IMG/VR virus record: IMGVR_UViG_3300023199_000051
Location: 96,001-160,000 of that record
Source: a virus
Reading direction: 5' to 3' (one strand)
DNA length: 64,000 bases
Below the pieces are notes generated by a model. It worked only from the letters and a program-made list of their open reading frames with translations, was not told the DNA's origin and did no database searches. Numbering within the stretch: position 1 is the first letter of the stretch; every line of letters begins with the position of its first letter. The position numbers were made by a program, and so were the translations under genes. Positions 3,574 through 64,000 of this stretch are shown here, piece after piece.

Positions 3574-3730
3574 CGCACCTCGGCCCCTGGGACCCCGTGG
3601 TGAAGTGGGAACCAAGTCCCCACGTCACGGGGCCGCAGGGGCCAGGCGTGCGCACCGATCGGTGCGCACAGTGTGACAGCGGAAGCTATCACGGTAGCGC
3701 CGTAGCTACGGGGCAGCGGTTGCTACCCCA
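3574..3730. other. Cluster of intergenic hairpins, including an ~80-nt stem and a perfect 22-bp palindrome
   Basis: Nested stem CGCAC/GTGCG, GGCCCCTG/CAGGGGCC, CCCCGTG/CACGGGG (3574-3652). GTGCGCACCGATCGGTGCGCAC at 3648-3669. CGTAGCTACG at 3701-3710. Confidence 0.75.
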
Positions 3731-3759
3731 CAGGCGTAACCCTCGGTAGAGGGCCGCGC

Positions 3760-4476
3760 CTAGTAGCCGTAGCCGGGAGCCGAGAAGCCCTGCGTCGCGG
3801 CGGTCAGGAGCATGTGCTCCATCCAGCGCTGCATCGCGTAGGGGTTCAGCTCGTCGGCGATGATGCCGCCGCTGACCGTCCGCGGGGCACCCGTGGCGAT
3901 GTTCGCCAGGTTGACCCGGAAGGTCTGGCCGGTCAGCGCGAGACGCCGCCCGAACGAGATCCCGAAGCGGGTGCTGTCGCTGGCGAACATCGACAAGGGG
4001 GTTCCCTTCGAACCCACGTTGACCGGCAAGCCGGCGACCGTGATGCCCGTCACGAGAACTTCGGCGGGGACGTCGGCGTCGAGCACCAGGCTCTTCCCCC
4101 ACAGGTTCCGGTTGATGGTGTCGTCGATGTAGCCAGTCGACGAGGCTGGGATCTCGACACTGCCGAGGCCGTTGTACTGGTTCTCCTGGATCATCCCGGC
4201 CGCGGCTGCGGCCTGGTAGACGTCTGCGGGTGCTGCTCCTTGATTGGGCATCGGTTCCTCCTGGGGGGGTGGTGCGAGGCGGGCCTGACGGCGCTCCAGA
4301 CGGTCGATCTTGCGAGAGGTGCGGCGGAGCCGCGCCTTCTTGCCGAACGGCCACAGGAGACCAGACTCGTCTTCTTCGTCGTCGTAGTCCATCTCTTCCA
4401 CGTCGGCGGGGTCCACGTAGACCTCGCCGGTCGCTTCGTCGAGCTTCACGGGGACTGCGCCAATGACAGTGGACAT
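3760..4476 (-). CDS. Candidate single-jelly-roll-type capsid protein with an acidic/basic N-terminal extension
   Basis: GGAG RBS. The ~110-aa beta-rich core (LWGKSLVLD..VLVTGITVAG..TPLSMFA..GQTFRVNLANI..VSGGIIAD) resembles small beta-sandwich proteins of tailless viruses. The fold is an inference. Confidence 0.45.
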   Translation of the reverse strand: MSTVIGAVPVKLDEATGEVYVDPADVEEMDYDDEEDESGLLWPFGKKARLRRTSRKIDRLERRQARLAPPPQEEPMPNQGAAPADVYQAAAAAGMIQENQYNGLGSVEIPASSTGYIDDTINRNLWGKSLVLDADVPAEVLVTGITVAGLPVNVGSKGTPLSMFASDSTRFGISFGRRLALTGQTFRVNLANIATGAPRTVSGGIIADELNPYAMQRWMEHMLLTAATQGFSAPGYGY

Positions 4477-5328: not shown

Positions 5329-5650
5329 GGAAGCGACCTCCGTGTTTCGATGCCTAAAGCGTATCGAAGGGTGACAGGTTGTGCAAGCAGGAAAAAGAAG
5401 TTTCCAGGCCCACTATGGGCCTTATGTGCCCCTACTCACAAGTAGGTCCGGCGAAAGTGCCGGGAGACCCTATATGGGCCAGTTGATGTCGAACCCCTTG
5501 CCGAACCGTGGGAGGCCCGTTCGGGATCCTGAACGCCATGGTTCGTCTGGACGCCGAAGCATCGACGAGAGGGCGTATGAAGCTCTGGACTGCTGCAGGA
5601 TTGGCCGCGGGTATGCGAGTCCTTCCTGGAGCATGCGGTCGAGGGGTCGC

Positions 5651-44961: not shown

Positions 44962-45162
44962 ATGCCTACAGACAACACCGAGGATGCGCGGGAGATCGTC
45001 AAGGTCCTCCGCGACCGAGGATGGACTGCCCAGGACTTCGCGCGCGAGACAGGGGCTTCCCTCCGCACCGCGTATCGGTGGATCCGAGGGGATCGTCAGA
45101 TCTTCTCGGCCTACCAACGCGCACTACGCGATGTCGCACAGCGGGAAGGACTCGCCGCGTAG
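44962..45162 (+). CDS. Small HTH DNA-binding protein
   Basis: GWTAQDFARETGASLRTAYRW. Confidence 0.75.
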   Translation: MPTDNTEDAREIVKVLRDRGWTAQDFARETGASLRTAYRWIRGDRQIFSAYQRALRDVAQREGLAA

Positions 45163-45173
45163 GGAGGTGTCCT

Positions 45174-47216: not shown

Positions 47217-47283
47217 ACACTGCCATGAAGGGCTCGCTCTAAGGTGATACCTTGGGGCGAGCCTTCCCTTTGGAGACTGCTAC

Positions 47284-50200
47284 ATGGCTGACTGGAAACA
47301 GAAGTACGAGGCTCTGGTCTCGCCGTCAGGTCTCAACGAGTACCAACACGCCAGCGTCGATGAGCTGGTCCGAGCAGCCAAGACGCCGGCTCCATTGCGG
47401 CTCGTGGCTGCAGCTGGTTCGGGGAAGAGCCGCACGATCATCGCTGCAACCAGCAAGGCAGTGAACGAGGGCATTCTCCAACCAGAAGACATCATCGTCA
47501 CCACGTTCACGCGCAAGGCGGCCGACGAGCTGCAGGAGAAGATCAAGGCTCACGTCAACCCGAAGCTCTGGCATCGACTGTCCAAGCGCATCAACACCTT
47601 CCACGGCCTGGCGCTGCGCTGGTTGATGTCGAAGGGGACGAAGAACCAGCAAGTCATCGCGGAGTACCCCAACGGCTTCAAGCGTGACAAGAACCTGGAC
47701 GGGAAGGTCCGGACAAGGCGCCGTGAGGTAGGAGAGGAGGGTGAGACCAAGACGGAGACGGTTGGCCTCCCGATCAATGCGTCGCGCCTGTGGAGCCGGA
47801 TCATCGGCCAGCCTTGGTTCAACTACAAGAAGGGAGGCGGCAAGACCCCGCGAGAGATCCCCGGCTTGGAGGGGACCGGCTTCTACGGCCTCGACGTCTC
47901 CGGTTCCGACGAGGAGAAAGCAGCGGGTCTCGTGCCGACAGGGGGAGACTACGCACTCGCAATCGGTCTCATCCGGTCCCGAGCGAAGGCGCGCACCGAC
48001 GAGCATGCGCAGCAAGCACTCTGGGCCATGCAGCGCTTCGCAGGAGATGTCGTACTGGACAGCAGGGTCCTCGTTCAGGTGAGCCACGAGGAACAGCGAA
48101 AGGCCCGCGACTGGCTCGCCGACAACAAGTACAACATCGAGAGCCCGCTGCCTTTCATCGACCAGGCATGGAAGTGGTACGACCGCGCCAAGGACAAGCT
48201 CAAGGCATGGGACTTCGCGGACGCGCTTCACGTCTACTGGAAGCACGGTACCGAGTCCGCGAAGCTCATCATCGTCGACGAGGCACAAGACAACTCCTGG
48301 ATGCAGCTCGACATCGCCCGGCAAATCGCTGAAAGAGGAGGAGGAAAGTTCGCTATCGTCGGCGACGTGCGCCAGTCGATTTATTCGTGGAGGGGGGCCA
48401 TGCCTTCCTACATGGAGAACGCTGACAGGACGCATGGCGCCAAGACGCTGGAGATCCCGACCAACTACCGGAGCGGTCGCCAGATCGTCGAGCTGGGCAA
48501 CACCATCAGCGGAGGCAAGTCCTGGGCGGTGGGCAGCCAGGCCATCCCAGCTCGGCGCAACGACTTCCCAGCCCCCGCAGACTGGTACCGGCTCAACGCT
48601 GTGCAGGAAGGCGAGTCTCAAGCGGAGATCGCTCAACCGACCGCGCTGAGCTTCGTAGACGCTGTCGACGACCAGAAGCACAAGCTGCCGCGCGGGTACG
48701 TAGGTGTGCTCAACGCCGTCGATGGTGATCCGTCCGACGGAGCTGAGGAGATCGCGGCGGCCGTCAAGAAGGCGCTCGATGCAGGCGCAGACCCGAAGGA
48801 CATCGCTGTCCTGGTCCGAACCAACAGCCTCGGCGAGTTCATCGAGTTTGGACTGCTCAAGGCCGGCATCCCGGCCGTGCGCCTTGGCATGGACTACAAC
48901 TTCTTCGATCGCGCGTCGGTAGCAGCGGGCCTGGCCTACATGCTGATCTCGTCGCCGACCTACAACAGCAATCCGGCACTCGCCGAGCGGAGGGCGCGGA
49001 ACAAGCCGGCGCACCTCGAACGCATCGTGAACACTCCCAAGCGGTACCTCTCCCCCAAGAGGGTGACGAAGGCTGTCGCGGCGCACATGAAGCGCAACCC
49101 CGGCAGCTCGATCGTCGACGGCATTGATGCCATCATTCGGGGTGGCGGGCGGTACAACGGCAACTACGTGGCCTCCAAGTACCGCGGTGTCGAGAACCTA
49201 CGTGATCTGCGTGCGACCCTCATTGACTTGAGCAGCAAGTCCTGGGAGGAGCTACCACTCGCTGTCTACGACGTCCTCAACCCAGAGACGGATGAGGAGG
49301 ATGAAGAGGATGAGAGGGAGGACTCCGAGCGTGCCCTGTCCCGCAACCTGGCAGCCATCGCAGAAGGCTTCGATGACCTCAACACCTTCCTGCAGTTCGT
49401 TGGCCGTGTACAGCAGACACGGGTCTCGTTCCGCGACTCCGACATGGACAATGCAAAGAAGGCTGCCGAGGCTCAGAAGGCCATGTCCGAGCGTGTGACC
49501 ATCTCTACGGTGCACCGGAGTAAGGGCCTTCAGTGGCCAACCATCTTCATCCCATGTACCGACGGCATCTTCCCGCTGGACCGCGCGCTTGACCGTGACC
49601 CAGAAGAAGAGCTGCGCCTGTTCTACGTGGCCGTGACCCGTGCACAGGACAACTGCATCCTGACGTACTCGGACTACCGACTCGGGCGTAAGCCAGGACA
49701 GGTCTCTGTGGATAAGGTAGCAAGCACAGGGCCTGGACGGTACATCTACCGGATCTTCACCCCTTTCTACAGGGAGCAGCGCGCGCTCGATGAAGCGCTG
49801 CTCCGCGCGAAGCAGGCTCCGTGGAAGCTCGTCGATGATGACACCGAAGAGGCGCTGTTCAACCGTACCTTCACCTGGCGCAACCCAGTCGCCCCAGAGT
49901 GGTTCGTGCGCGTCGTTGAGCGTCCAGCTCCCAACGACCCGCAGACCAGTGATGAAGGTGTAGCGGGAGCGGTATGGACGGTCAGCAGTAAGTTCGGCGG
50001 GCAGGGCTGGCAGGTCGTGACCGCTCCAGAAGGTTTCCAGGGGGACGAGACCGTCCTCGATGACAGCGAGCGTGCACACTGGCGGATGCCTGCTGAAGCA
50101 GTAGAGGTGGCCATCACGTACATGGAGAGCAATGCTGGGAAGTCACACGTCGGCATCGACGATGCCGCCGAGATTCGCTTTGCGGACTTCGTGTCCTGGG

Positions 50201-52272
50201 TCGCACAGATGGAGGGGGAGGTTCGTGAAGGCCTGACCTACGCCGACTTCGCGACCTGGCTCACCGAGGATGCCTACAAGCAAGGCATCATCGACGACTT
50301 CCGGCGCATCATGGAGACCGCAGACAACCCCATCCGAGCGGCGTTGGGGTGGAGCCGGCTCACTGATCTGTGGGCGTCCGCGTCAGGGCAGGCCGAGCTG
50401 CACCCTTCCAGTACAGGTGAAGGGTACGCCATCACCGAGCGACCCGGCGCGCGCCCCCTCGGTGTGCTGTGGCGGAGCGGTGGCGAGCTGCAGTACCAGG
50501 GAGACATCCACCTACGCGAGCCGCAGAACCTCCACTACAGCGTCGCCGAGGTAGGAGATGGAGAGGTCACGACCCTGTGGCAGGATGGCAGTGGGGGCTC
50601 CTATCCCATGAGTGGTCCTCGCTACGTAGAAGGAAGCGCAGCCCTGCAGGATGCCCTCACAGCAGCTGCCCAGCGTGCCATCGCACAAGGGGCAGAGGCG
50701 GCAGAGGTGGAGACACCGGCCACCGTCGAGGCGCCTGCCGCGCCAGCTCGGGTAGCTGCGTCTCTCCCCGCCATCGGGTACGAGGTCCAAGCCCCCCCAG
50801 GCACCACCGAGCAGCAATGGGCTCAGCTTGTGCATGGCTGGCAGGACACCGAGCTGGGCAAGGAGTGGAAGCTCGATTCGAGCGGGTGGACTGCAACATG
50901 GACGCACCCTCCTACAGGCATGGTCATCCGCGTGGCCCACATCGACTTCATGGGCAACCCCATGCTGCAGGTGGCGCACAACCAGGCGCACCTGCAGCCC
51001 AACCGGGTGCAGTACGGCTCGCCAGACGCTGCTCTCAAGCAGGTGCAGGCCTGGCAGGCCGTCGTCGAGGAGATGGGAGACGGCGCCCCCGGCGCGGAGG
51101 CTACTCCCCCCAAGCTGCCGGCTGCACCGACAGCTTCCGCCAGACCGGAGACCGCGGGTACCACAGATGGTCTGATTGACCAGGTGAGGTGCGCCATCCT
51201 CGAAGTGCTGGCCGTCAGCACGGTGAAGATGGGCAGAGAGGGGGACACGGCAGGGCCACTCGAAGGAAACGTGCGAGAGGAGATGTCCAAGCGAGGCGTG
51301 TCTCACCTCGATGCCGCAATGGTCCACTTTCCCGAGGTGCTGTCGTCGTTGATCACAGCTGGAAAGGTGCGCGCGGACTACCAGCCAGACAAGCAGCTGT
51401 ATGGCCTCACGATGGCTGGTGCCGAGGATGCATGCCTGCTCCGGGCGAAGGCGACAGGGCAGGTGGACGCCGCTGTCCTGTCCGCGGTGCCCAGCGCCAA
51501 TGCCCCTGCGCGCCCGATCGTGTGGGTACGGCTCCCAGAAGTACCCACCCATGTACGTCGTACCCTGCCGGGCAAGCTCATCGTGAGCCGTCCTCTAGCG
51601 GGCGATCGGTCTGCACCAGCTACGGTGAGCATCCCACGACCGCATGACAGCACCGACAAGCGCTCTGCGCTGGTACGCGTGGGTAGCTTCGTGATGACGC
51701 AGGATCCCCCGAGTAAGGGAGGCGGCTTCCTGCAGAGCATCTACCGCGTCGAGCAGCCTATCAAGCCAGGGGGCCCCGGTGAGCTGGCCCTCGTAGCAAG
51801 CAAGAACTTCGACCCCTACAAGCCGGACGTCGAAGGTAGGCTGGCGCTGTGGCGCCTCGTGCGCGAGGAAGTGGATGCCGGGTGGGGTGGGGACGATCTG
51901 AGTCGTCTGCTCATCGAACAAGACATCACCGAGCCGGAAGACGTCGAAGCAGCTCGTGCCATCTTCGAAGCTGGAGGCTCTGGGGTGTACCAGGTAGGCG
52001 GTGAGCGTGGTCCCGAGCTGTGGATGCAGGCGAGTGGTGCGGGTGTCTACGCTCCGGGAGCAGACCGGTGGAGGGACGGCACAGTGCGGAAGCGGAAGCT
52101 GCGCGGCGTGACTCCACCACAAGTGGTGAGCCTCGCCGAGCAGGGCGCCTTAGAAGCCGCGTCGCTAGAAGGTGTCGAGGAGGACACCTACGTAGTGGCG
52201 TTCTCCGAGGAGCCCGAGCCGTCTCCTGCGCCTGGAAGCTCGGAGGGGCTCCCAGTGACCGGCGTCCCGTAG
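47284..52272 (+). CDS. UvrD/Rep-like SF1A helicase with an ~800-aa C-terminal extension of unknown function
   Basis: AAAGSGKS, TFTRKAA, VDEAQD, VGDVRQSIYSWRGA, NYRS, TVHRSKGLQW, EELRLFYVAVTRA. Confidence 0.9.
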   Translation: MADWKQKYEALVSPSGLNEYQHASVDELVRAAKTPAPLRLVAAAGSGKSRTIIAATSKAVNEGILQPEDIIVTTFTRKAADELQEKIKAHVNPKLWHRLSKRINTFHGLALRWLMSKGTKNQQVIAEYPNGFKRDKNLDGKVRTRRREVGEEGETKTETVGLPINASRLWSRIIGQPWFNYKKGGGKTPREIPGLEGTGFYGLDVSGSDEEKAAGLVPTGGDYALAIGLIRSRAKARTDEHAQQALWAMQRFAGDVVLDSRVLVQVSHEEQRKARDWLADNKYNIESPLPFIDQAWKWYDRAKDKLKAWDFADALHVYWKHGTESAKLIIVDEAQDNSWMQLDIARQIAERGGGKFAIVGDVRQSIYSWRGAMPSYMENADRTHGAKTLEIPTNYRSGRQIVELGNTISGGKSWAVGSQAIPARRNDFPAPADWYRLNAVQEGESQAEIAQPTALSFVDAVDDQKHKLPRGYVGVLNAVDGDPSDGAEEIAAAVKKALDAGADPKDIAVLVRTNSLGEFIEFGLLKAGIPAVRLGMDYNFFDRASVAAGLAYMLISSPTYNSNPALAERRARNKPAHLERIVNTPKRYLSPKRVTKAVAAHMKRNPGSSIVDGIDAIIRGGGRYNGNYVASKYRGVENLRDLRATLIDLSSKSWEELPLAVYDVLNPETDEEDEEDEREDSERALSRNLAAIAEGFDDLNTFLQFVGRVQQTRVSFRDSDMDNAKKAAEAQKAMSERVTISTVHRSKGLQWPTIFIPCTDGIFPLDRALDRDPEEELRLFYVAVTRAQDNCILTYSDYRLGRKPGQVSVDKVASTGPGRYIYRIFTPFYREQRALDEALLRAKQAPWKLVDDDTEEALFNRTFTWRNPVAPEWFVRVVERPAPNDPQTSDEGVAGAVWTVSSKFGGQGWQVVTAPEGFQGDETVLDDSERAHWRMPAEAVEVAITYMESNAGKSHVGIDDAAEIRFADFVSWVAQMEGEVREGLTYADFATWLTEDAYKQGIIDDFRRIMETADNPIRAALGWSRLTDLWASASGQAELHPSSTGEGYAITERPGARPLGVLWRSGGELQYQGDIHLREPQNLHYSVAEVGDGEVTTLWQDGSGGSYPMSGPRYVEGSAALQDALTAAAQRAIAQGAEAAEVETPATVEAPAAPARVAASLPAIGYEVQAPPGTTEQQWAQLVHGWQDTELGKEWKLDSSGWTATWTHPPTGMVIRVAHIDFMGNPMLQVAHNQAHLQPNRVQYGSPDAALKQVQAWQAVVEEMGDGAPGAEATPPKLPAAPTASARPETAGTTDGLIDQVRCAILEVLAVSTVKMGREGDTAGPLEGNVREEMSKRGVSHLDAAMVHFPEVLSSLITAGKVRADYQPDKQLYGLTMAGAEDACLLRAKATGQVDAAVLSAVPSANAPARPIVWVRLPEVPTHVRRTLPGKLIVSRPLAGDRSAPATVSIPRPHDSTDKRSALVRVGSFVMTQDPPSKGGGFLQSIYRVEQPIKPGGPGELALVASKNFDPYKPDVEGRLALWRLVREEVDAGWGGDDLSRLLIEQDITEPEDVEAARAIFEAGGSGVYQVGGERGPELWMQASGAGVYAPGADRWRDGTVRKRKLRGVTPPQVVSLAEQGALEAASLEGVEEDTYVVAFSEEPEPSPAPGSSEGLPVTGVP

Positions 52273-52570: not shown

Positions 52571-53455
52571 ATGGGCCTCCTCCACGAACAGGCGGTGAAG
52601 AGCATGGCGGGAACCCCCCAGGAAGCATCCGAGAACGGACCGGAGCCGACCGAGACCCCGGTCAACGGAGGTGGAAAGCCGGTCGTTGACAACGGCGCTG
52701 AAGTGAAGGAAGCCGCCGACACCGAGAGAGAGGAAGAGGAAGGCATCGAGGGAACCGAAGGAGCAGCCGAGAGCAGCGAGGGTGTCCAGATCGAGCTGGT
52801 CTCCCCATCCGAAGAGGGCAACGACGAAGAGGGCGACGACGAAGAGGGCGGCCCTGACGACCCTGACGGCGCAGACATCGAACGTCTGGCGCATGAAGGC
52901 GTGCCCAGCAATATGCCGCGGTGGGTACGGGCCACCGTGAATCAGTTGCTCAGGGAGCGCAAGGCTGCCCACGACCACTACGGCCCTGCACTGCAGGAGA
53001 TTGGAGCAGCTCGCGCAGTGCTCACCGAGACCATCGTCGAACACGTCGATCTCGACGACAACGAGCGTGCAGAGGTGGAAGCGGGCCGTGCCGACCTGGT
53101 CCACTACGCGCAGCTGGTCAACCAGCTCGTCGAAGACATCAGCGAAGAGTGCGAAGACCGCCTCGACGCGGCACTCGGCTTCGCGCGCGTGTCCTGTGTA
53201 CTCAGAGGCGAGCCTCTTCCGCCATCTCTCGGTAAGCCAGGCCCCGTGACGCTCCGGCTGCAGCAGGTGCTCAAGGAGCATGCGCAGAGGGCGCTGTCCA
53301 GCATGCCAGGTGCGGACTCCCGAGCTGCAGGCCAGCGGGACTGTCCCCTCTGCACCTCGGAGGAGGCTGCCGAGCGCGGCGTCGAGCCGGGCATCATCTT
53401 TGGCATGCCCTGCCCGGTGTGCAAGGGCAACACCGTGATCGAGGTGTCGCCATGA
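52571..53455 (+). CDS. Acidic protein with a C-terminal Zn finger
   Basis: E/D-rich N-terminus; CPLC...CPVC. Confidence 0.7.
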   Translation: MGLLHEQAVKSMAGTPQEASENGPEPTETPVNGGGKPVVDNGAEVKEAADTEREEEEGIEGTEGAAESSEGVQIELVSPSEEGNDEEGDDEEGGPDDPDGADIERLAHEGVPSNMPRWVRATVNQLLRERKAAHDHYGPALQEIGAARAVLTETIVEHVDLDDNERAEVEAGRADLVHYAQLVNQLVEDISEECEDRLDAALGFARVSCVLRGEPLPPSLGKPGPVTLRLQQVLKEHAQRALSSMPGADSRAAGQRDCPLCTSEEAAERGVEPGIIFGMPCPVCKGNTVIEVSP

Positions 53456-53802
53456 TGGTGGTCAAGGTCTGCATGTGGCCGAACGGCGATGCGTCGAAAG
53501 AGCGCGTGATGTCGGTGGCCACCTTCACATGCAAGGGGCAGAGCAAGGAGGGTGAACGCCGCTACCAGGTGAAGCTCCTCAAGGATGCCCAGTTCTCCAA
53601 GCTCGACCTCAACGATCCCGGCGCCGTGCGCCGACCTCCTGGCCGCGAAGTCTGGAGGCAGGGGTGGGTTCGAGGTCACTTCCCAGGCCGGAGGGGGATC
53701 TGGGATCTCGTCGGCGGGGCACTGAACATGATGCTGGGATCCCGCCTGGTCTCCTACCGTCGAGACGACACGCTGCCGCGTGAAGCCAACATTACACCTT
53801 GA
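53452..53802 (+). CDS. Hypothetical protein
   Basis: ATGA overlap with the previous stop. Confidence 0.65.
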   Translation: MMVVKVCMWPNGDASKERVMSVATFTCKGQSKEGERRYQVKLLKDAQFSKLDLNDPGAVRRPPGREVWRQGWVRGHFPGRRGIWDLVGGALNMMLGSRLVSYRRDDTLPREANITP

Positions 53803-53871: not shown

Positions 53872-54318
53872 ATGAAGCAGGGCAGTGACAAGCCGCTCAA
53901 CAAGGGTGCAGAGGCGGCCAGGGCCTTCGGGCGCAAGCTCCGCGAGCTGCGGAAGGCAGCTGGTCTGTCGCAGCGACTGCTGGTGCATGCAGCCTCTGAA
54001 GGCAACCACATCCCAGGCATCGTCACTCCGGCGATGGGCCACTGGGAAGTGGGTCGCCGCATCCCGCTGCCAGGCCAGCTGTACGTGATCATGGAGGCCT
54101 TGAACGCCACGGAGGCCAACCGGCTGGCCCTCCTTGACCTGGCGGCCGAGGCCAACCTCACCTACCGCGACATGATGGGGATGGTGGAAGGGCTGCCTGA
54201 CAGCGACCGTCTCCAGCGATGGGAGTTTCAGGCCGCCTCCTCCTTCCAAGGGCTCCGCGCCACCCGCAGCGAGTGGCGTCAGCTCAACAAGGAGGCGGCA
54301 GAAGAAGATGCAGCGTAG
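53872..54318 (+). CDS. XRE-family HTH regulator
   Basis: FGRKLRELRKAAGLSQ...MGHWEVGRRIP; TTGACA at 53799 upstream. Confidence 0.8.
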   Translation: MKQGSDKPLNKGAEAARAFGRKLRELRKAAGLSQRLLVHAASEGNHIPGIVTPAMGHWEVGRRIPLPGQLYVIMEALNATEANRLALLDLAAEANLTYRDMMGMVEGLPDSDRLQRWEFQAASSFQGLRATRSEWRQLNKEAAEEDAA

Positions 54319-54733: not shown

Positions 54734-55666
54734 GTCGCAGCGGTCTGCTGACTGCTGCGTGTGTTGGAGCGGCCTGCACAGCCCGCCGTCATCGAGCCCG
54801 TGCACGGTCGCAGCGGTCTGCTGACTGCTGCGTGTGTTGGAGCATCGCAACCGTGTCAAGCTGGTTCGTCGGCATCGGGTCGCAGCGGTCTGCTGACTGC
54901 TGCGTGTGTTGGAGCTGCGTGGCGAGGTGCTCCGCCCAGATGGCGTCTGGTCGCAGCGGTCTGCTGACTGCTGCGTGTGTTGGAGGTAGTCGGAGGAGTC
55001 GATGGCGCCGCGGGGGTGGTCGTCGCAGCGGTCTGCTGACTGCTGCGTGTGTTGAAGGCGACTGGAGCTGCGCACCTTGTGCCGGGCAACGCGAGGTCGC
55101 AGCGGTTTGCTGACTGCTTCGTGTGTTGAAGGGTCATCGGCACCCGGCGCACGATCGGGATGCCACTTCGTCGCAGCGGTCTGCTGACTGCTGCGTGTGT
55201 TGGAGGGTCATGGTGGTCTCCGCTAGCATCGCGGAGGACCTCGGGCGCAGCGGTCCGAGGGCTGCTGCGTGTGTTGGAGCGCGGAAGTACCGGGCTTCGA
55301 CCTGGGCGTCTGTTGCCTCCGGCGCAGCGGTCTGCTGACTGCTGCGTGTGTTGGAGAGAGGCGTGTGTTGGAGGTGGGATGGGTGGTCATCGGATACCAT
55401 ATTCATGCTCGTCGCAGCGGTCTGCTGACTGCTGCGTGTGTTGGAGGCCCATCCGGGAGGTCATCGACGACCTCGCCGAGCAGGTCGCAGTGGTTGAGAG
55501 GCCGCTGCGTGTGTTGGAGGATCAGGAAGAAGGCCAACTGGAAGGGGCGCCACTCGGGGCCGCAGCGGTCTGTTGACTGCTGCGTGTGTTGGAGCCCGTT
55601 TCCGCCCTTCAGAAACACTGTGCCGGCGGGGTCGCAGCGGTCTGCTGACTGCTGCGTGTGTTGAAG
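54734..55666 (+). CRISPR. CRISPR array: 13 x 36-bp repeats (consensus GTCGCAGCGGTCTGCTGACTGCTGCGTGTGTTGGAG), type I-C-like
   Basis: Repeats start at 54734, 54807, 54879, 54950, 55022, 55096, 55170, 55244, 55321, 55411, 55484, 55559 and 55631. Spacers are unique and 35-41 bp, except one 54-bp interval containing a repeat fragment. 8-bp stem GCAGCGGT/ACTGCTGC. A degenerate half-repeat lies at 55707-55718. Confidence 0.97.
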
Positions 55667-55826
55667 CCACGACGAGCCGGGCGTGTATATCGGGGAGCTG
55701 CGTCGGGGCGTAGCGGTCGGAACTCCATTGCACGAAAAGGCAGTTTATGCCTGCAATATGAAGAATTGTGTGCGGTTTGTGCCACGGCAGGCTACATTAG
55801 GGGTGTCACCAACGAGGAAGACGTCA

Positions 55827-56420
55827 ATGCTCCCCACCACGGATAGCACCGAACACCACCATTTGGAGTGTCTGATACTGAGGTCAACCTCAAAGCTGCG
55901 GCGTGTTCGAGAAGCACGCGGGTACTCCCAGGTCGCACTCGCCCAACGCACTGGGGTCAGCCAGCCAGACATCTCTGCCCTGGAGCGTGAAGCGCTGTCT
56001 CCGACTGGAACAAATGGCACCTGGCGCTGCCAGGTCTACGACCTGGCAGACGTGTTGGGGGTGCTCCCGGGGGAGTTGTTCCCCAGAGCAGACGCACCCT
56101 GCACGGTCCCACTTGATCATGCCGCTAGCGTGGCTCACCCCGCTGACCTGGAAGCCCTCATTGAGGTCCACGAGGACATCCAGCTTCTCATTGTCGCCAT
56201 GGAGCAGTTGCCAGCACAGGGCCGTCGCGCTCTGGCTCTGCGCTATGGAATCGGCGGCCACGAAGAGCACAGCCTCGCTGCAGTCGGCCGGAAGCTGACG
56301 CCGCCTGTGGGCGCGGAACGTGCCCGTCAAATTGTGCGCACGGCCTACTTCCAACTCCGTGAGTGTGGCCCTATCCCCGCTGCCTACCCTTCCCTCATGT
56401 ACACCCCCCGGAGCTTCTGA
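55827..56420 (+). CDS. XRE-HTH plus sigma70 region-4-like fusion regulator
   Basis: LRRVREARGYSQVALAQRTGVSQPDISALE; LPAQGRRALALRYGI...SLAAVGRKL...AERARQI. Start reassigned to ATG 55827. Confidence 0.8.
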   Translation: MLPTTDSTEHHHLECLILRSTSKLRRVREARGYSQVALAQRTGVSQPDISALEREALSPTGTNGTWRCQVYDLADVLGVLPGELFPRADAPCTVPLDHAASVAHPADLEALIEVHEDIQLLIVAMEQLPAQGRRALALRYGIGGHEEHSLAAVGRKLTPPVGAERARQIVRTAYFQLRECGPIPAAYPSLMYTPRSF

Positions 56421-57988
56421 TGAAATGGTTCGACATCGACAAAGAGGGCATGCGCAAGGTGCTTGCCCGTCGCAGCATCGCCCACGCGCTGCTGGAGCTG
56501 GTACAGAACGCGCTCGACGAGCCCGGCACGACGAGCGTGAAGGTGCGGATCAGCCCGGTGCCCCGCAAGCCCTTCGCCTGGGTCGAGGTGTCCGATGACG
56601 CGCCGGAGGGCTTCAAGCGCCTGTCCGACGCCTGGACGCTGTTCGCCGAGAGCTGGAAGAAGGGGGACGCGACCAAGCGCGGCCGGTTCAACATCGGTGA
56701 GAAGCTGGTCCTCGCCATGGCCCGCGAAGCGGCCATCACGACGACGACGGGGACCGTCCTCTTCGAGGAGGCTGGGCGCCGCCGCACCCGCGCTTCGACC
56801 GAGAAGGGCTCCCTGGTCTGGGTGCTGCTCCGCATGACCCGCGCTGATGTGGCTGAGGCGGAAGCTGTGCTTCACCGCGTCCTGGTCCCGGATGGGATCA
56901 CCTTGACGGTGGCCGTCACTGGGGAGGGACCGGGCGACGATCTATCCACCGTGGTCGAGCCGTCGGAGCCCCTGGCCGTCTCCACCGTCTCGCTGCCCAC
57001 CGAGATCGCCGACGATGGGGGCTACCTGCGCCCCACCGCCCGCAAGACCACAGTCGCCATTCACGAGCCTGCCGACGACTCTGGCGCCTGGCTGTATGAG
57101 ATGGGGATCCCCGTCGTCCAGCTCGACACGCCCTGGTCGGTCGACGTTCAGCAGCGCATCCCGCTCAACCTCGACCGGGACAACGTCACGCCGGCCTACG
57201 CCCGGAAGGTGCACGCCGCGGTGCTCAACACCATGCGGGAAGAGCTGAGTCGCTCCGAGGAGCACCGAGGCTTCAGTGCTTGCGAGCCCTGGGTTCGGGA
57301 GGCATCTGGCGCTCCAGAATGTGACGACGACGCATTCAAAGCGGTCCTCGACGCACGCTTCGGCGAAGACCGGGTCATGGCCGACCCCTCCGACCGCGAG
57401 GCTGGTATGAACGCCGTCAGTCACGGATACAAGCTGGTGTACGGCAACCAGCTCAACGCCGGGAAGCGCAGGAAGCTCCGCGAGCTGCGTGCCAAGGGCG
57501 ACGACCCCCTCGTCCCGGCCGGGCGTACCCGCTTCAAGAGCCCCAAGCCCTACAGCGACGATCCCGACGCGCCCCAGGTCAAGGTCATCCCCGAGTACGA
57601 CTGGACCGACCGGCAGCACGAGGTAGTCGCCTACGCCAAGCATGTCGCGGCCGAGCTGGGCGTCACGCTCCAGCTCACCGTGCGCATCGTCCACACCACC
57701 AACGGCTTCGCAGCCTGCTACAGCCCTGGACAGCTCGACCTCGGACAGCTCGACCTCAACCTCTTCCGCCTGGGCCACGACTGGTTCAAGGGCACGGGTC
57801 CGGGTGCCCTGGAGCGCGTCAACGATCTGTTCATCCACGAGTTCGGTCACCACTACGAGGACAACCACCTGTCCAGCGACTACCACGACGCCTTGACCCG
57901 CCTGGGGGCAGCTCTGACCCGCGCCGCCTTGGAGCGGCGGCTGCGCCCTGGCGACTTCGGCTACAAGCTGTCTGGGGGTGCGCAATGA
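56420..57988 (+). CDS. GHKL (Hsp90/MORC-like) ATPase with a C-terminal HExxH motif
   Basis: LLELVQNALD (N-box), VSDDAPEG, KRGRFNIGEK and FIHEFGHH; TGATG coupling. Confidence 0.8.
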   Translation: MKWFDIDKEGMRKVLARRSIAHALLELVQNALDEPGTTSVKVRISPVPRKPFAWVEVSDDAPEGFKRLSDAWTLFAESWKKGDATKRGRFNIGEKLVLAMAREAAITTTTGTVLFEEAGRRRTRASTEKGSLVWVLLRMTRADVAEAEAVLHRVLVPDGITLTVAVTGEGPGDDLSTVVEPSEPLAVSTVSLPTEIADDGGYLRPTARKTTVAIHEPADDSGAWLYEMGIPVVQLDTPWSVDVQQRIPLNLDRDNVTPAYARKVHAAVLNTMREELSRSEEHRGFSACEPWVREASGAPECDDDAFKAVLDARFGEDRVMADPSDREAGMNAVSHGYKLVYGNQLNAGKRRKLRELRAKGDDPLVPAGRTRFKSPKPYSDDPDAPQVKVIPEYDWTDRQHEVVAYAKHVAAELGVTLQLTVRIVHTTNGFAACYSPGQLDLGQLDLNLFRLGHDWFKGTGPGALERVNDLFIHEFGHHYEDNHLSSDYHDALTRLGAALTRAALERRLRPGDFGYKLSGGAQ

Positions 57989-58689
57989 GCAACCCCCTCG
58001 ACAACATCGACGACGCCACACTGGCAGCTGCAGTGCGGGAGGCGCTGTACGTCGAAGCCTGCCACGTCACAGGAACGCACAATCCACGGCACACACCCCT
58101 GTACATCTGCGTGGAACAGAAGAGGGCGATGGTCGGCCGGTTGCTGCGGGAGCTGAAGCTGAGTGCCTACGACCTTCCCCGAAAGGGGGACTACTGGACA
58201 CGGCGGTACCAGGAGCAGGCCAAGAGCGGCGACCAGAAAGCGTTGCTTACCTGGGGCATGGAGGAGGCATGGCTGGACTACTGGGCGCCTGCTGACGTGC
58301 TACGGGGCCTGGACCATGGACCCTGGGACTACGGAGAACGGGAGCGGCTGGCGCGCCGCCTGCGTAAGGAGCTGACCATCGAGATCCCCCTCTCGACGTC
58401 GGCTGGCAGGAAGGCTGGCAAGTACCACGGGCCCTTGGTCGGCATCGAGATGGTGGCACATGGGCTCCTCATCACGCCCCGGCCGAACCTGTACTCGGTG
58501 AGCACTTTCCGGTACTGGCTCCTGGTGAGGCTGACTGGTGGCGTGCGCCTGGTCACGGTCGACGGCAGCTACCACAAGGCCGACACCGAAGCGCCTACCA
58601 GCACTCCCCTCTCCGGGGCCAAAGAGATTGCATCGTGCATCAAAGAGTGCGTCGAAGCACTGAAACCGGCAGATACCTCCACGTCGTAG
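57985..58689 (+). CDS. Hypothetical protein
   Basis: ATGA overlap; 234 aa. Confidence 0.65.
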   Translation: MSNPLDNIDDATLAAAVREALYVEACHVTGTHNPRHTPLYICVEQKRAMVGRLLRELKLSAYDLPRKGDYWTRRYQEQAKSGDQKALLTWGMEEAWLDYWAPADVLRGLDHGPWDYGERERLARRLRKELTIEIPLSTSAGRKAGKYHGPLVGIEMVAHGLLITPRPNLYSVSTFRYWLLVRLTGGVRLVTVDGSYHKADTEAPTSTPLSGAKEIASCIKECVEALKPADTSTS

Positions 58690-58742
58690 CCTCTCGTGCT
58701 ACATTCCTGATACACCCTCACTGTTGACATCCCGGAGTAGGC

Positions 58743-58898
58743 ATGTCTGAGTCCACACACCGCGAGACTGACCGCGAACGCGAGGCGCGACTGCGCCGGT
58801 ATGCCTTCGTCGCCACCGTGCTGCTTGCGCCCTTCTGGGTGCCGGCTGGCATCGCTGCAGGGCTCATGGATAGCTGCTGCCAGCGGGGGGCGCAATGA
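58743..58898 (+). CDS. Small membrane peptide (51 aa)
   Basis: MSESTHRE...YAFVATVLLAPFWVPAGIAAGLM; GGAG upstream; its stop overlaps the next ATG. Confidence 0.5.
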   Translation: MSESTHRETDREREARLRRYAFVATVLLAPFWVPAGIAAGLMDSCCQRGAQ

Positions 58899-59404
58899 CT
58901 GAAGCTGCCATCCGTGCCGAGTTCGAGCGCCTGTGCACCCTGGATGTCTTCGGAGGCGTCTTCGACGAACGGCTGCCCGCGCTCCACCTTGAGCAGCACA
59001 GCGACGTCCGGCGCTGCAAGGGCGAAGCCGATCTCGATGACTGGCTCGTCGTCGTGCACCTCTGGGAGGGGCAGAGCTGGGGTGAGACACGCGAGACGAT
59101 GCTGCACGAGCTGGTGCATCTGTCGGGGCCAGCCTGCTGGCGCGGCCACTACGCACCCTTCAAGCGCAAGCTGCTCGCAGCTGCACTGGAAGCCTGGGGC
59201 TTGCAGGGCAGCCTGCTCGGGTGGACGCCGTGCCAGCCGTACCGCCAGCTCGACCACCATCTCGTCGACGCCCTGGACCACCCATGGAGGACAGCTGTGA
59301 AGAGGGCTGTCGCTGAAGCGGTGGAACACCTGCGACTGCTGCTGTCCGTGAGGGCGGTCGGAGCGGCTGGCTGCACCGGGCTGCGGGGGGCCGGTGATGA
59401 ATGA
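58895..59404 (+). CDS. SprT-like zinc metalloprotease domain protein
   Basis: RETMLHELVHL...HYAPFK. Confidence 0.7.
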   Translation: MTEAAIRAEFERLCTLDVFGGVFDERLPALHLEQHSDVRRCKGEADLDDWLVVVHLWEGQSWGETRETMLHELVHLSGPACWRGHYAPFKRKLLAAALEAWGLQGSLLGWTPCQPYRQLDHHLVDALDHPWRTAVKRAVAEAVEHLRLLLSVRAVGAAGCTGLRGAGDE

Positions 59405-59654
59405 CCGCCTGCCTTGTGGCCACCACACTGCGTGTGTCGTCTCCACCGACGAGGGCACGCACTATTGCGGGCGGTGCGAGGAGGTTGCTCGCCTCCTCGA
59501 CGACACCGAGCGGCTGCAGGCCGAGATTGACCGCCTGCAAGCCAACGCCACCGCCCGCGAAGGGTTGCTGCGCCGCCGGACTGATGCACTACGTGAGGCC
59601 GAGCGGGAGCGGGCTGCCTTGCGGTCGCGGTCGGAGGAGGACCCCGATGCGTGA
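59397..59654 (+). CDS. Small Zn-finger/coiled-coil protein
   Basis: LPCGHHTAC...YCGRC followed by a heptad-like tail. Confidence 0.55.
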   Translation: MNDRLPCGHHTACVVSTDEGTHYCGRCEEVARLLDDTERLQAEIDRLQANATAREGLLRRRTDALREAERERAALRSRSEEDPDA

Positions 59655-59792
59655 TCCGCACTGGCATGCCGTCGGACAGGTAGGAATCTTTCGAGGATAG
59701 GTGACGCAGGTACCTTTGAGAGGGTATGTAGTATGTGTCACATTAGACTACACCGCACACACTGAACACCCAGCACCGAGGACTCAACAGCA

Positions 59793-60596
59793 ATGGATAC
59801 TGCGACCCACCGAAGAGGTGCGGACCGTGACCAGCACGTCACGCTCCGCCTCTGGGGACTGGAAGCGCTGTGGACGCCGGCGCACGTCCGGGCCAACCCC
59901 TACAGCTACCCGGTTCCGACCTACAGCGCGTTGAAGGGCGTCCTTCGCGCCATCTACTGGAAGCCGCCCTTCGAGTACGAGCCCTTGTGGGTGTCCGTGC
60001 TCAAGCCGATCCGGTACGAGACCCGATCGATGATCGGAGTGGTCAACACCCTGGCACAGGCTGACAAGGACCCTGACGGTAACGGCGGCCGTACTCGCTA
60101 CACGCAGAGCATCCTGTGGGACGTCGACTACGTGGTGCGGGCGCGGCTCGTCAAGAACCCCCACTACCCGCACAAGACGCTGCATGCGTACCACCAGGAG
60201 ATTCTGCGACGGATGCGGCGTGGCGAGCAGTATGGGCCGCTGTACATGGGCAAGTCCGAGTTCGCCGCCAACTACGAGCTGATCGAGGAGGGCGACGAGC
60301 TTCCAGCCCCGCAACCCATCACGATGGACCTGGGGAGCATGCTCTTCGATCAGATCCCCCTACAGCTGGGCAGCTGGCGCAGCCGGAGGAGGTGGCGCAA
60401 GCGGAAGGCTGCAGGCCGCAAGGTCAGCAAGCGGGAGCCCTGGAAGCAGGAGCTGATGCCCGTGTTCCACAAGGCCACGATGCAGGGCGGCGTGGTTCAC
60501 TTCCCGGCCGATCTGATGGACCGCTACCGCGACCAGATCTTCGAGGCGCGGGCCAAGACCCACCAGGACACGAGGGGGGACCATGTTGCTGCTTGA
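59793..60596 (+). CDS. cas5: Type I-C Cas5 (Cas5d-like)
   Basis: SYPVPTYSALKGVLRAIYWKP, LKPIRY and ILWDVDYVVRA...GPLYMG match the Cas5c/Cas5d pattern. Confidence 0.9.
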   Translation: MDTATHRRGADRDQHVTLRLWGLEALWTPAHVRANPYSYPVPTYSALKGVLRAIYWKPPFEYEPLWVSVLKPIRYETRSMIGVVNTLAQADKDPDGNGGRTRYTQSILWDVDYVVRARLVKNPHYPHKTLHAYHQEILRRMRRGEQYGPLYMGKSEFAANYELIEEGDELPAPQPITMDLGSMLFDQIPLQLGSWRSRRRWRKRKAAGRKVSKREPWKQELMPVFHKATMQGGVVHFPADLMDRYRDQIFEARAKTHQDTRGDHVAA

Positions 60597-62526
60597 CAAG
60601 CTGATCGAGCGATCGCGTCATACCCAGGTGCTCCCAGGATACGCCAAGTCCGAGTTCTCTGTTGTGCTGCACGTCGGGAAGGATGGCACCTTCAAGGGCA
60701 TCGAGGTGCTCGATGAGCCTCGCACCGAGATCGTGCCCACCAATCCGGTCAGGACAAGCTCTGTGGTGGCAATGACTGCCATCGACAACGCGCTGTACAC
60801 CCTGGGGGCCGCGCCTCCTGGCCGGTCTGCCGAGTGGGTTGCGAAGCGCCACCAAGCGTACCTCGGCATGCTGAGCAAGATCGACCACCCTGCATGCAGG
60901 CTGATCGAGAAGGCACTGGCGCAGAGCCCAGCCGTGGTGGGGTGGGACAAGCAGGTGCCCACGCAGGCGCAGCTTGCCCAGGTCATGGAAGCTGATGAAG
61001 TACAGCGCACCGGGCCTGGCAAGAAGGCGCTGATCAAGCGTGGAAAACTGACGCCGAACAGCCAGGTGGTGGGCGCGCACAAGTGCGCCATCACCAGCGC
61101 AGCTCGCTACGTAGACGCAGCCTCTGTGCTGCATGTGTCGGGCCTCAGCGACAAGTCGATGATCCTGATTGACGTCGAGGGCCACGAGCAGTGGTGGTGC
61201 GATCCCGCTGTGGACGCGGTGCACACCAGGCGTCGGCTGGAGGCCAACAACCGAGAGGGGACACCCCGCATGTGGCCGTGCTCCCTGTGCGGGGAGACGC
61301 GCACCATCACCCGGCTGTTCCGCTCCAGCCACGTCCTGAGCGGTGGCCTCATCAGCTTCAACGGAGCTGCGTGGAGTGGCTACAACCGCAAGCAGGGCCG
61401 CTGTGCACCTACGTGCATGGAGTGTGCAGAGCGCATCGGCATCGGCCTCGACGCCATCCTGCGCACCCCAGGCACGCTCAAGTGGCTGGGTGGGGAGGAG
61501 GACTATCGGCTTGTGTGGTGGGCTGACGATCCCGGCAAGCCGGGCCCGTGGCCTGCGCTCAGCAAGGCGCTCGACATGGAGACGCCCGACGAGGATGCGG
61601 AGGAGCTGCTCAGTCAGATCACAGCCGGCCAGCTCATCAGCCTCACTCAGCAGGAGAAGCGTCTGTCGCTACGGCGTCACGTCCAGGTGGACCCCGAGGT
61701 GGTGCGGGAACGTGTCATGCGGTGGCGGCGCGTCCACCGCCGCTTCCTGGGGGAAGACCGGCAAGCATGGCCCGTGAGCACCGCTCATGCGTTGCGCTTC
61801 GATGGAGCCACGAGGCAGGCGAAGCTGTCGAACCGGAACCCCGGACTCCTGCGGCGCCAGGAGATGATCTACCTGTACCTCCTCGGCGGACAGCCGTTCT
61901 GCCGACGAGAGACCAACTGGGCGCAAGCACTGTTGGACAGGCAGCACCCCGACGACCACCAGAAGACAACCAACCTGCGCCGGGCGGCGTTTCTGACGTT
62001 CGCCGGTGCTCCCTACCAGCAGGAGAAAGACATGGAGTTCGCAGTGACTGCGTACGACGACAAGGGACGTCCGATCAGGACGTGCCGAGCCCCGGAGGAA
62101 AGCAACCTCGACCTGGCCGAGCTGGCCGTGTTCTACCTCGGACGCGCCCTCGCTCGGGCAGCCGACAACCAGACCAGTGGGGGTCGCTCCGTCCAGACGC
62201 GCGTCGACAGCACCTACAGCAACCTCGTGAAGCGGCGCCCCGGCGACGTCTACAGGATCATCAAGTCCAGCTACAGCCAGTACGAGTTCTTCAACGAGAA
62301 GACGCAGCGCCGGACGAAGGTCGACGACAAGGTGATGGAGGTACTGCTGAGCCGGACGGTGGAGTTCCAGCCGCTCAACGGCCTCCCTGCCCCCATGGAT
62401 CCCCGCCAGTGCGTCATCTTCGACAAGGGCTACTACTTCCAGCGCTTCCTCCGGGATGCATACATGGAGGTGTGTGCGCAGGAGGCTGCCGAGGAGGAGG
62501 CTGCCGAGGAGGTGGCTGCCAAGTAG
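60583..62526 (+). CDS. cas8c: Type I-C large subunit Cas8c (divergent)
   Basis: Lies between cas5 and cas7; RTSSVVAMTAIDNALYTLG; CSLCG/CMEC Zn motifs; LISFN; C-terminal YLGR and GYYFQ. Confidence 0.8.
   Translation: MLLLDKLIERSRHTQVLPGYAKSEFSVVLHVGKDGTFKGIEVLDEPRTEIVPTNPVRTSSVVAMTAIDNALYTLGAAPPGRSAEWVAKRHQAYLGMLSKIDHPACRLIEKALAQSPAVVGWDKQVPTQAQLAQVMEADEVQRTGPGKKALIKRGKLTPNSQVVGAHKCAITSAARYVDAASVLHVSGLSDKSMILIDVEGHEQWWCDPAVDAVHTRRRLEANNREGTPRMWPCSLCGETRTITRLFRSSHVLSGGLISFNGAAWSGYNRKQGRCAPTCMECAERIGIGLDAILRTPGTLKWLGGEEDYRLVWWADDPGKPGPWPALSKALDMETPDEDAEELLSQITAGQLISLTQQEKRLSLRRHVQVDPEVVRERVMRWRRVHRRFLGEDRQAWPVSTAHALRFDGATRQAKLSNRNPGLLRRQEMIYLYLLGGQPFCRRETNWAQALLDRQHPDDHQKTTNLRRAAFLTFAGAPYQQEKDMEFAVTAYDDKGRPIRTCRAPEESNLDLAELAVFYLGRALARAADNQTSGGRSVQTRVDSTYSNLVKRRPGDVYRIIKSSYSQYEFFNEKTQRRTKVDDKVMEVLLSRTVEFQPLNGLPAPMDPRQCVIFDKGYYFQRFLRDAYMEVCAQEAAEEEAAEEVAAK
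62032..62526 (+). CDS. cas11: Hidden small subunit Cas11 from an internal in-frame start in cas8c
   Basis: AGGAG RBS 6 nt before the in-frame ATG 62032; the 164-aa product carries FYLGR and FDKGYYFQR. Confidence 0.65.
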   Translation: MEFAVTAYDDKGRPIRTCRAPEESNLDLAELAVFYLGRALARAADNQTSGGRSVQTRVDSTYSNLVKRRPGDVYRIIKSSYSQYEFFNEKTQRRTKVDDKVMEVLLSRTVEFQPLNGLPAPMDPRQCVIFDKGYYFQRFLRDAYMEVCAQEAAEEEAAEEVAAK

Positions 62527-62608: not shown

Positions 62609-63532
62609 ATGACCACCCCCCACACCCCCACCACCTTCGACCCCGACTATGGGCTCCCCTGCGACCCCAGGCAGAGCATGACCATGGTCGTGCTGCTGAG
62701 CTGCTACCACGGCATCCTCAACATGCGCCCAGACGGCTCTGGAGAGCCCCGCATGGACCCTGACGGGCACAGCACCGCGACCGGCGAGTGCATCAAGCGC
62801 ATCTGGCGCGACGGCGTGAAGATCGCAGGCGGCCTCGACCTCCTCTACGAGCGCGACTGCGACATCGGGGACCGCACGTCCCCCTACGTCATCAAGAAGG
62901 GCAAGGAGGCGGGCAAGCTCGACCTCGAACGGATGTGCGCGGACTTCTGGGATGCTCCCCTGGGCACCCCGGCCACGGCGGCGAAGAAGCAGGCCGCGCT
63001 CCGCAGCGCACTGACCGTGCAGCTCTCGCGCAGCGTCGACGAGGTGCTCCCCGACCTGGAGCACTTCGCTGGGACCATCGGCAACACCAAGGAGCGGGAC
63101 GGCGCAGGTGACAGCAAGGAGAGCTACCTCTCTCGCGCCTTCAACACGCGCTTCCGCGTGCCCTTCGCCACCTACGTCACGCCCGTGATCTACCACCCGA
63201 TGCTCGGCGCGAAGTACGGGATCACGCCTCAGTGGTTCCAGTCGCTGTACACCGGCATGATTGACGGTCCCGAACACATCCTGTCCACCCAGCGGTCGGA
63301 CCTCCGCGTGGAGGGGGTGTACGTCTTCACCACGTCGAAGATGCGGGGCGGCGAGCGCAAGTGCGACACCGTCAGCCGCGTGAAGATCGCGTGCAAGGAG
63401 GGCGTCATCGGAGGGCGTGCCAAGCGCTTCAGCGACTACGAGATCACCGTCGACGACGACATGCCCCCCTGGATGCAGCTCTACAGCTACGTGCCCGCCC
63501 TGCAGCGCAGCGAGCAGGCCGCCGCCAAGTAG
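62609..63532 (+). CDS. cas7: Type I-C backbone Cas7 (Csd2-like, divergent)
   Basis: ILNMRPDGSGEPRMD...TGECIKRIWRD parallels the Csd2 NPNGDP..PR.D..TDVCLKRK.R motif; RVPFATY; RFSDYEI. Confidence 0.85.
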   Translation: MTTPHTPTTFDPDYGLPCDPRQSMTMVVLLSCYHGILNMRPDGSGEPRMDPDGHSTATGECIKRIWRDGVKIAGGLDLLYERDCDIGDRTSPYVIKKGKEAGKLDLERMCADFWDAPLGTPATAAKKQAALRSALTVQLSRSVDEVLPDLEHFAGTIGNTKERDGAGDSKESYLSRAFNTRFRVPFATYVTPVIYHPMLGAKYGITPQWFQSLYTGMIDGPEHILSTQRSDLRVEGVYVFTTSKMRGGERKCDTVSRVKIACKEGVIGGRAKRFSDYEITVDDDMPPWMQLYSYVPALQRSEQAAAK

Positions 63533-63561
63533 AACGCGCCCACACACACAAGGAGACCCCC

Positions 63562-64000
63562 ATGAAGTACAAGCCCCTCAGAGCGTGCCAACAGAGCGCG
63601 CTGGATTCCATGATGCCTCTCGACTGGCGCACCTTCGTCCTCGCCGCTCCAACCGGCAGCGGTAAGTCGTGGGTGATCGCGGGCCTCGCGTACCTCAACC
63701 TCAGGTGGCAGGGGAGACGTCCTGCCTGCTGGGGTGACGCCTCCGAGGTCAAGAAGGTCATCGTGGCCACTCCGATGCAGCACATCGAGAGCGGCTACGT
63801 AGACGAGGCGTGCTTCCATTACTCCGCGGAGGGGGTCCGCACGCCGCTGCGCGTCAAGGTGGCCGAGGACTTCTGGCTGCGCGTCCGGGAGATGAAGGGT
63901 GCGGCCGGGGACAACCTGCGCAAGCTCGTGTCCGGCGAGAAGGGCACGGGTGGGCGGGCCATCCTCACGTCACACCAGCTCCTTGTGAGCGTCTACAAGG
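63562..64000 (+). CDS. SF2 helicase, partial; possible Cas3' with no N-terminal HD domain
   Basis: Not in the ORF track because there is no stop in the window. AGGAG RBS; MKYKPLRACQQSAL...LAAPTGSGKS...VIVATP...ILTSHQLL; open to the edge. Confidence 0.7.
   Translation, partial: MKYKPLRACQQSALDSMMPLDWRTFVLAAPTGSGKSWVIAGLAYLNLRWQGRRPACWGDASEVKKVIVATPMQHIESGYVDEACFHYSAEGVRTPLRVKVAEDFWLRVREMKGAAGDNLRKLVSGEKGTGGRAILTSHQLLVSVYK

Follow-up and report, generated by a model that had tools for sequence, protein, structure and literature searches.

A viral type I-C locus with a ResIII-type helicase as candidate nuclease-free partner of Cascade in place of Cas3

Type I CRISPR systems are defined by Cas3 and normally destroy their targets. 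In the canonical type I-C loci used for comparison (L014-L016), the genes are arranged in the order cas3-cas5c-cas8c-cas7c-cas4-cas1-cas2, in agreement with a preliminary description of the DNA analysed here, which placed I-C cas3 normally upstream of cas5. From huge phages, a type I-C variant 'with a helicase protein instead of Cas3' has been described (Al-Shayeb et al. 2020, Nature 578:425, PMC7162821, Extended Data Fig. 9). The layout, a I-C Cascade with a helicase and without Cas3, is thus already published, but it is uncharacterised and has lacked a mechanism ever since its publication in 2020. The literature searched yielded no functional study of the Cas3-less I-C helicase variant, and a text search of the 2025 CRISPR classification revealed no mention of it. 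An incomplete type I-C system with a Cas8-Cas5 fusion and lacking Cas3 has also been reported, with no helicase mentioned (Altae-Tran et al. 2023, PMC10910872). For type IV-A CasDinG systems, interference that is independent of a nuclease has been described (PMC11519345).

An arrangement of this kind is present in the virus record IMGVR_UViG_3300023199_000051, a genome of 178,164 bp that has direct terminal repeats and a GC content of 64% and is estimated to be 100% complete. The window, which is the whole stretch of 64,000 nucleotides analysed, comprises bases 96001-160000 of this record. The following features were identified, with positions referring to the window unless stated otherwise.

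54734-55667, plus strand: CRISPR array 1, 13 repeats of 37 nt (GTCGCAGCGGTCTGCTGACTGCTGCGTGTGTTGGAGC) and 12 spacers of 34-53 nt
59793-60596, plus strand: cas5c-like gene, 267 aa (Pfam Cas_Cas5d, 7e-14; TIGR01876, 75.6 bits, cut-off 85)
60583-62526, plus strand: gene for a cas8c/csd1-like large subunit, 647 aa (Pfam Cas_Csd1, 2e-16, residues 16-355; PADLOC Cas8c, 1.9e-19)
62609-63532, plus strand: gene for a cas7c/csd2-like backbone subunit, 307 aa (Pfam Cas_Cas7, 5e-19)
63550-63556, plus strand: Shine-Dalgarno sequence AAGGAGA, 5 nt ahead of the helicase ATG
63562-64000, plus strand: gene for an SF2 (ResIII/DExH) helicase, first 146 codons in the window, ATG at 63562
Genome 162073-163314, beyond the window: CRISPR array 2, 17 copies of the repeat of array 1, beginning about 190 nt past the helicase stop

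According to Pfam, NCBIfam and PADLOC matches, Cas5c, Cas8c and Cas7c are present and Cas6 is absent, which corresponds to the type I-C effector set. All three Cas proteins score under the NCBIfam subtype cut-offs (54.7 bits compared to 218 for the Cas8c-like protein) and therefore belong to a divergent I-C branch. The best tblastn matches of Cas7 were annotated type I-C Cas7c proteins on Streptomyces and Deinococcus plasmids with 24-27% identity. Cas5 of the window is 37-40% identical to Cas5 of the related loci considered below, and Cas8c is only about 29-35% identical even among the related viral loci. An additional nuclease domain was looked for in the Cas8c-like protein of the window, and none was detected. 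Another minimal Cascade-like variant may be present on a plasmid of Micromonospora zamorensis (L017:7983-9531), where cas7c is annotated alone, surrounded by small hypothetical genes and with an 'endonuclease domain-containing protein' encoded next to it downstream; cas3, cas5 and cas8 are not annotated.

The two arrays flank the cas operon and the helicase gene, share one 37-nt repeat, and are the only arrays in the genome, both being of type I-C. The repeat forms a hairpin of 9 bp, and the roughly 11 nt behind it end in GTTGGAGC, as is the style of I-C repeats; variants in the hairpin keep the pairing. In both arrays, the repeats at the 5' end are perfect and degenerate progressively toward the 3' end, which places the leader of array 1 upstream. 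Four over-long spacers of 39-54 nt (window 55358-55410; L003 4534-4577, 4691-4744 and 5075-5113) start with a partial copy of the repeat 3' end, (GAGG)CGTGTGTTG(G/A)AG, and look like remnants of truncated repeat units. Spacer 8 of array 2 translates to PKKRVVVNLAPA, compatible with a comM-type gene as its source. No spacer targets were detected in the genome of the virus itself, in GenBank phages or in the loci retrieved for comparison, and exact matches in IMG/VR were not obtained for three leader-proximal spacers. The repeat sequence had no match in 185,579 species genomes or in IMG/VR.

Between array 1 and cas5 (55683-59700), five genes are located, specifying an HTH and sigma-70 region 4 protein (245 aa), a GHKL-type ATPase (541 aa, HATPase_c) overlapping an ORF of 234 aa, and ORFs of 169 aa and 99 aa. 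The 541-, 234-, 169- and 99-aa gene products were matched by neither PADLOC nor PHROGs, and the related loci conserve none of the five genes. A 148-aa HTH_31 protein, a possible regulator of the array, is encoded directly upstream of the array 1 leader (53872-54318). The neighbouring ORF of 127 aa (53419-53802) shows 50% identity to a part of a protein of 248 aa specified by the related locus L005 (19230-19976).

The stop codon of cas7 (TAG, 63530-63532) precedes the Shine-Dalgarno sequence and the ATG of the helicase gene. The complete helicase has 773 aa (genome 159562-161883, equal to L003:1398-3719), and its gene ends at the window-equivalent position 65883. The protein starts with MKYKPLRACQQSAL..., the Q motif begins at residue 10, and the Walker A motif APTGSGKS occupies residues 29-36. 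In an alignment of 36 homologues, M1 is found in 92% and Q10 in 94% of the sequences, and G34 and K35 are invariant. This conservation indicates that the start is real and that no family member has room for an N-terminal HD domain. The initial observation that ribosome binding site and ATG lead straight into the Q motif and Walker A, without an N-terminal HD domain, therefore holds for the window and likewise for the homologues.

Searches of Pfam with the full protein revealed weak matches to ResIII/DEAD at residues 5-195 (ResIII, 23.0 bits, cut-off 22.5) and to Helicase_C at residues 341-387 (25.0 bits, cut-off 23.5), and nothing in residues 400-773. The PHROGs call for the protein is DNA helicase. 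The SF2 motifs Q, I, Ia, II (DExH), III (TATP) and VI with its arginine fingers are all present. Q10, G34/K35, D162/E163/H165/H166 (DExHH), T192-A193-T194, Q379, R383 and R386 are invariant or nearly so in the family, and P71 is a further motif residue. Motif V, located outside the window (L003:2467-2475, residues 357-359), reads GEGANLP compared to EGxDWP in the relatives; Asn358 and Leu359 occupy positions at which the family has Asp in 94% and Trp in 78% of its members. Judged from these residues, the motor of the window copy could be weakened, or its coupling or activity may be altered.

An AF2 model of the helicase (pLDDT 84) consists of two RecA domains followed by an all-helical tail. 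The closest structures are the SF2 motors FANCM, Mfd, INO80/ISWI/Chd1, HsdR, RadD and RIG-I with Z of about 18-19; since they are all tied at this value, they do not distinguish between a duplex translocase and an ssDNA helicase. Among the best 50 structural neighbours of the whole model, no Cas3 chain was found. When the tail was folded alone (pLDDT 70), the structure search returned noise with a best Z of 6, including weak winged-helix-like entries at Z of about 5. Residues conserved to at least 75% past position 415 are S430 (Ala in the family), W446, R454, L455, P456, P457, G496, L603, R619, K644 (Gly in the family), P647, L680, L750, C753 (Ala in the family), G757, W758, R759, G760 and L767. 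No Asp, Glu or His reaches this level in the tail among the 36 homologues, which argues against a metal-dependent nuclease there. A C-terminal HD domain, as considered in the preliminary description, or another nuclease was therefore rejected: the tail is all-helical, has no match to Pfam or to a nuclease fold, and contains no conserved Asp, Glu or His. The tail is probably related to the helicase-associated (HA) domain. While the Pfam HA domain was not directly detected in it, hhalign comparisons with relatives suggest this relationship, and a protein atlas places the tail nearest to HA-domain clusters (feature score 0.81, to be taken as a lead only).

To the preliminary description, the helicase could also have been a split Cas3'. 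Searches of the complete 178-kb genome in six frames for Cas3_HD, cas3_HD and generic HD domains were negative, as was the genome-wide search for Cas1, Cas2 and Cas4, and no second copy of the helicase is encoded elsewhere in the genome. A separate HD or Cas3'' gene was thus rejected, and a complete HD-Cas3 nearby, which the preliminary description had named as evidence against its own reading, is absent from the whole genome. With TIGR01587, the model of the Cas3 core, the helicase reached 10.4 bits compared to the cut-off of 102, and the alignment was confined to the Walker A stretch. PADLOC, in which Cas3 models are included, gave no match to the helicase at all, and NCBIfam gave no Cas3 match.

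An exhaustive profile search identified 247 relatives, about 40 of which are full-length (700-800 aa, 23-33% identity), and 36 of these were aligned. ResIII matches 33 of the 36, no Cas3-specific domain was detected in any of them, and the Pfam Cas3 C-domain matches none. No match to the helicase was obtained by tblastn against GenBank phages. Comparison of the family with three I-C Cas3 proteins by hhalign gave an E value of 2.8e-8 (score 74.5, probability 95%) confined to the RecA core, whereas comparison with 30 more distant phage helicases gave 5e-107 (score 938) over 698 columns including the tail. All 30 of these phage proteins match ResIII and a few contain the HA domain; two that were examined are encoded on phage-like contigs without cas genes or arrays and are 900-1100 aa in size. 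In a quick tree, a clade with 100% support unites 33 of the 36 family members, and the Cas3 proteins constitute a distant outgroup on a very long separate branch. The cas-linked P0028 falls outside the main clade and is 40% identical to P0050 and 23% to the window helicase.

By these profile and tree comparisons, the helicase is part of a radiation of phage ResIII helicases and not a diverged Cas3'. A Cas3 reduced to its helicase and far diverged, with an HD partner that has disappeared or changed past recognition, would fit an SF2 DExH protein of 773 aa, close to the 769 aa of I-C Cas3, that is encoded in cas operons and aligns with Cas3 at 95% probability over the RecA core. This match, however, represents the generic SF2 core, and the match to phage ResIII proteins, which extends into the tail, is better by 100 orders of magnitude; the two of these proteins that were checked have no cas neighbours. 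Together with the failure of TIGR01587 and PADLOC to recognize the protein and the long branch leading to Cas3, these results make such an origin very unlikely. The split Cas3' was accordingly dropped as a candidate, the match to Cas3 being restricted to the RecA core, the match to ResIII profiles extending over the full length, and no Cas3'' or HD gene being present genome-wide.

To determine whether the helicase is linked to Cascade, related loci with enough flanking sequence were considered informative; three further contigs were too short and left out. In all seven informative contigs, the helicase gene is linked to cas5, cas8c and cas7, at 23-33% identity and in three gene orders.

Helicase after cas7: the window, the P0004 contig (Cas5-Cas8 fusion) and L005 (248-aa gene between)
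Helicase ahead of cas5, where canonical loci have cas3: L011, P0019 and L020
Helicase and cas genes convergent, with an array of at least 37 repeats between them: L007

Arrays abut the helicase gene in L005, L007 and L009, in the latter on both sides. An all-against-all comparison of ORFs revealed that only cas5, cas8, cas7 and the helicase gene are shared between the loci, and arrays are kept as well. No conserved partner gene is shared, be it for a nuclease or for a methyltransferase-like protein, the latter being detected neither in the window locus nor in the relatives, and nothing recognizable by Pfam or PHROGs was found among the flanking ORFs. The window locus has nothing corresponding to the 248-aa gene that separates cas7 from the helicase gene in L005.

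Several peculiarities of individual loci were noted. On the P0004 contig (ENA ERZ27256875), Cas5 and Cas8c are fused into one protein of 820 aa, encoded ahead of cas7 and the helicase gene. In L020, cas7 homology is split over two frames (5338-6121), indicating a frameshift or a sequencing error; Cas5 and Cas8 of this locus are nearest to those of the window (40% and 35%), and its helicase core is just 23% identical to that of the window and 40% to P0050. In L007, a gene adjoining cas5 (18177-18539) shows a weak match to the Acb2/Tad1-hairpin family of anti-CBASS or anti-Thoeris sponges, and a Mg-chelatase/ComM-like gene (1572-3866, 764 aa) is located near the cas genes.

An ordinary phage replication or recombination helicase that came to lie beside cas genes by chance could be suspected from the nearest relatives outside the subfamily, of which the two checked are found on phage-like contigs without cas genes. 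Yet linkage in every informative contig at such low identity and in three gene orders, and arrays abutting the helicase gene, render a chance neighbourhood extremely unlikely. The third possibility raised in the preliminary description, a non-Cas3 helicase recruited to Cascade, gains support from the same linkage. Since cas-linked members occur on two branches of the quick tree, recruitment may have taken place more than once.

The gene orders also bear on the question of whether the viral Cascade cuts by means of a host Cas3, the helicase being an auxiliary factor for removal or recycling of Cascade, for resolution of R-loops on the viral genome or for protection. The Cascade proteins are recognizably I-C, and high-GC bacteria, among them Streptomyces and Deinococcus, do possess I-C systems with Cas3. 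In three relatives, however, the helicase gene is located exactly in the Cas3 slot upstream of cas5, which suggests replacement and not addition. The low conservation of Cas8c among the viral loci and its score far below the NCBIfam cut-off make compatibility with a host Cas3 doubtful, and the repeat was not found in the 185,579 species genomes. Cutting through a host Cas3 is therefore regarded as improbable.

A further explanation retains target destruction, which is usual for type I systems. The helicase could be the motor half of a two-part degrader, with an unlinked nuclease, of the host (RecBCD/AddAB-type or Cas3) or of the virus, destroying the target. Unwinding or translocation from the R-loop would make substrates for cellular nucleases, and about 11-18 kb upstream, the viral genome contains genes for a UvrD-type helicase of 1662 aa and for an SMC-like ATPase. 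Against this stand the lack of a nuclease gene conserved beside the module in any related locus and a genome without HD domain or Cas3. The upstream UvrD and SMC genes, moreover, were not seen beside the related Cascade-helicase loci. A division of labour of this kind is considered possible but less probable. The upstream genes themselves (45021-52272) specify an SMC/AAA_23-like ATPase of 731 aa followed by the UvrD-family helicase, with GajB-like PADLOC matches; about 860 additional C-terminal residues of the latter have no assigned function. The pair could represent a recombination or anti-defence module.

The interpretation we favour, with some reserve, is that the helicase is a dedicated partner of Cascade in place of Cas3, a nuclease-free ATP-driven ResIII SF2 translocase or helicase, and that the target is not cut. 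The gene content, the absence of nuclease signatures, the conserved ATPase motifs, the tight linkage to Cascade and the non-Cas3 ancestry are observed; from these we infer recruitment, translocation and a nuclease-free outcome. As the conserved unit consists of Cascade, an intact ATPase motor and arrays, without a nuclease, an RNA-guided translocase acting at the R-loop is the most economical reading. According to this model, the Cas5c-like protein would process transcripts of both arrays to crRNAs, and a Cascade of Cas5, Cas8c and Cas7 would bind a PAM-flanked target with formation of an R-loop. The helicase would then be recruited, probably via Cas8c or its own tail, and would move along or unwind the target DNA driven by ATP. 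RNA polymerase, replisomes and other proteins could thereby be pushed off, so that silencing or a replication block would spread past the bound site; the effect would be like that of CasDinG in type IV-A, and the effector itself would make no cut. Without Cas1, Cas2 and Cas4, the set of guides would be fixed or supplied by the host, and would be aimed at the host or at rival elements. Silencing instead of cutting, as raised in the preliminary description, is plausible. More tentatively, the viral I-C system may have swapped Cas3 for a ResIII translocase from the viral repertoire, possibly more than once, yielding a Cascade-guided nuclease-free motor for programmable eviction of polymerases or long-range silencing, which would be an independent type I counterpart of CasDinG.

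New here, beyond the layout known since 2020, are how large the helicase family is, that it is strictly linked to Cascade in three different gene orders, that it originated outside Cas3, and that a complete genome with such a locus lacks any nuclease signature. If the proposed role is true, a nuclease-free Cascade motor would add to type IV-A a second and independent way for CRISPR to interfere without cutting, and would illustrate how viruses turn CRISPR against their hosts or their competitors. It could also be of use as a programmable motor or silencer of compact size. As the genome is complete, has two arrays and shares no accessory genes with its relatives, the locus offers a simple version to reconstitute, consisting of four proteins and an array.

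Like canonical type I-C, the locus has the three Cascade genes in unchanged order and a hairpin repeat that ends in ...GTTGGAGC, and it lacks Cas6. It differs by the lack of an HD-helicase Cas3 and of adaptation genes, and by the ResIII-type helicase after cas7. With the variant of Al-Shayeb et al. (2020, PMC7162821), it has in common virus-encoded Cas5d-like, Cas8c and Cas7 proteins and an adjacent helicase, without Cas6, Cas1/Cas2 and Cas3, the helicases being compared by description only. The two phages of that study are larger than 200 kb and also carry CasPhi, whereas the present genome has 178 kb and the two I-C arrays only. The Cas8-Cas5 fusion reported by Altae-Tran et al. (2023, PMC10910872) is matched by the P0004 relative, while cas5 and cas8c of the window are separate genes. 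The helicase itself resembles phage ResIII/DEAD helicases with HA (PF03457) tails in the motifs LRxYQ, PTGSGKT, DExHH, TATPFRxD and QxxGRxxRxK and in HA-like features of its tail; the two such relatives checked, devoid of cas genes and arrays, are longer at 900-1100 aa than the 773-aa protein. With type IV-A CasDinG systems (PMC11519345), the locus has in common a class 1 effector combined with a nuclease-free SF2 helicase, the lack of an adaptation module and the carriage on a mobile element. This makes type IV-A a functional analogy for possible silencing without cutting, and no membership is implied. The effectors are unrelated, Csf proteins as opposed to Cas5, Cas7 and Cas8c, and DinG-type Pfam domains were found neither in the window helicase nor in its family. 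The motors belong to unrelated subfamilies, DinG/XPD-like in type IV-A and of the ResIII/DExH type with an HA-like tail in the viral I-C locus.
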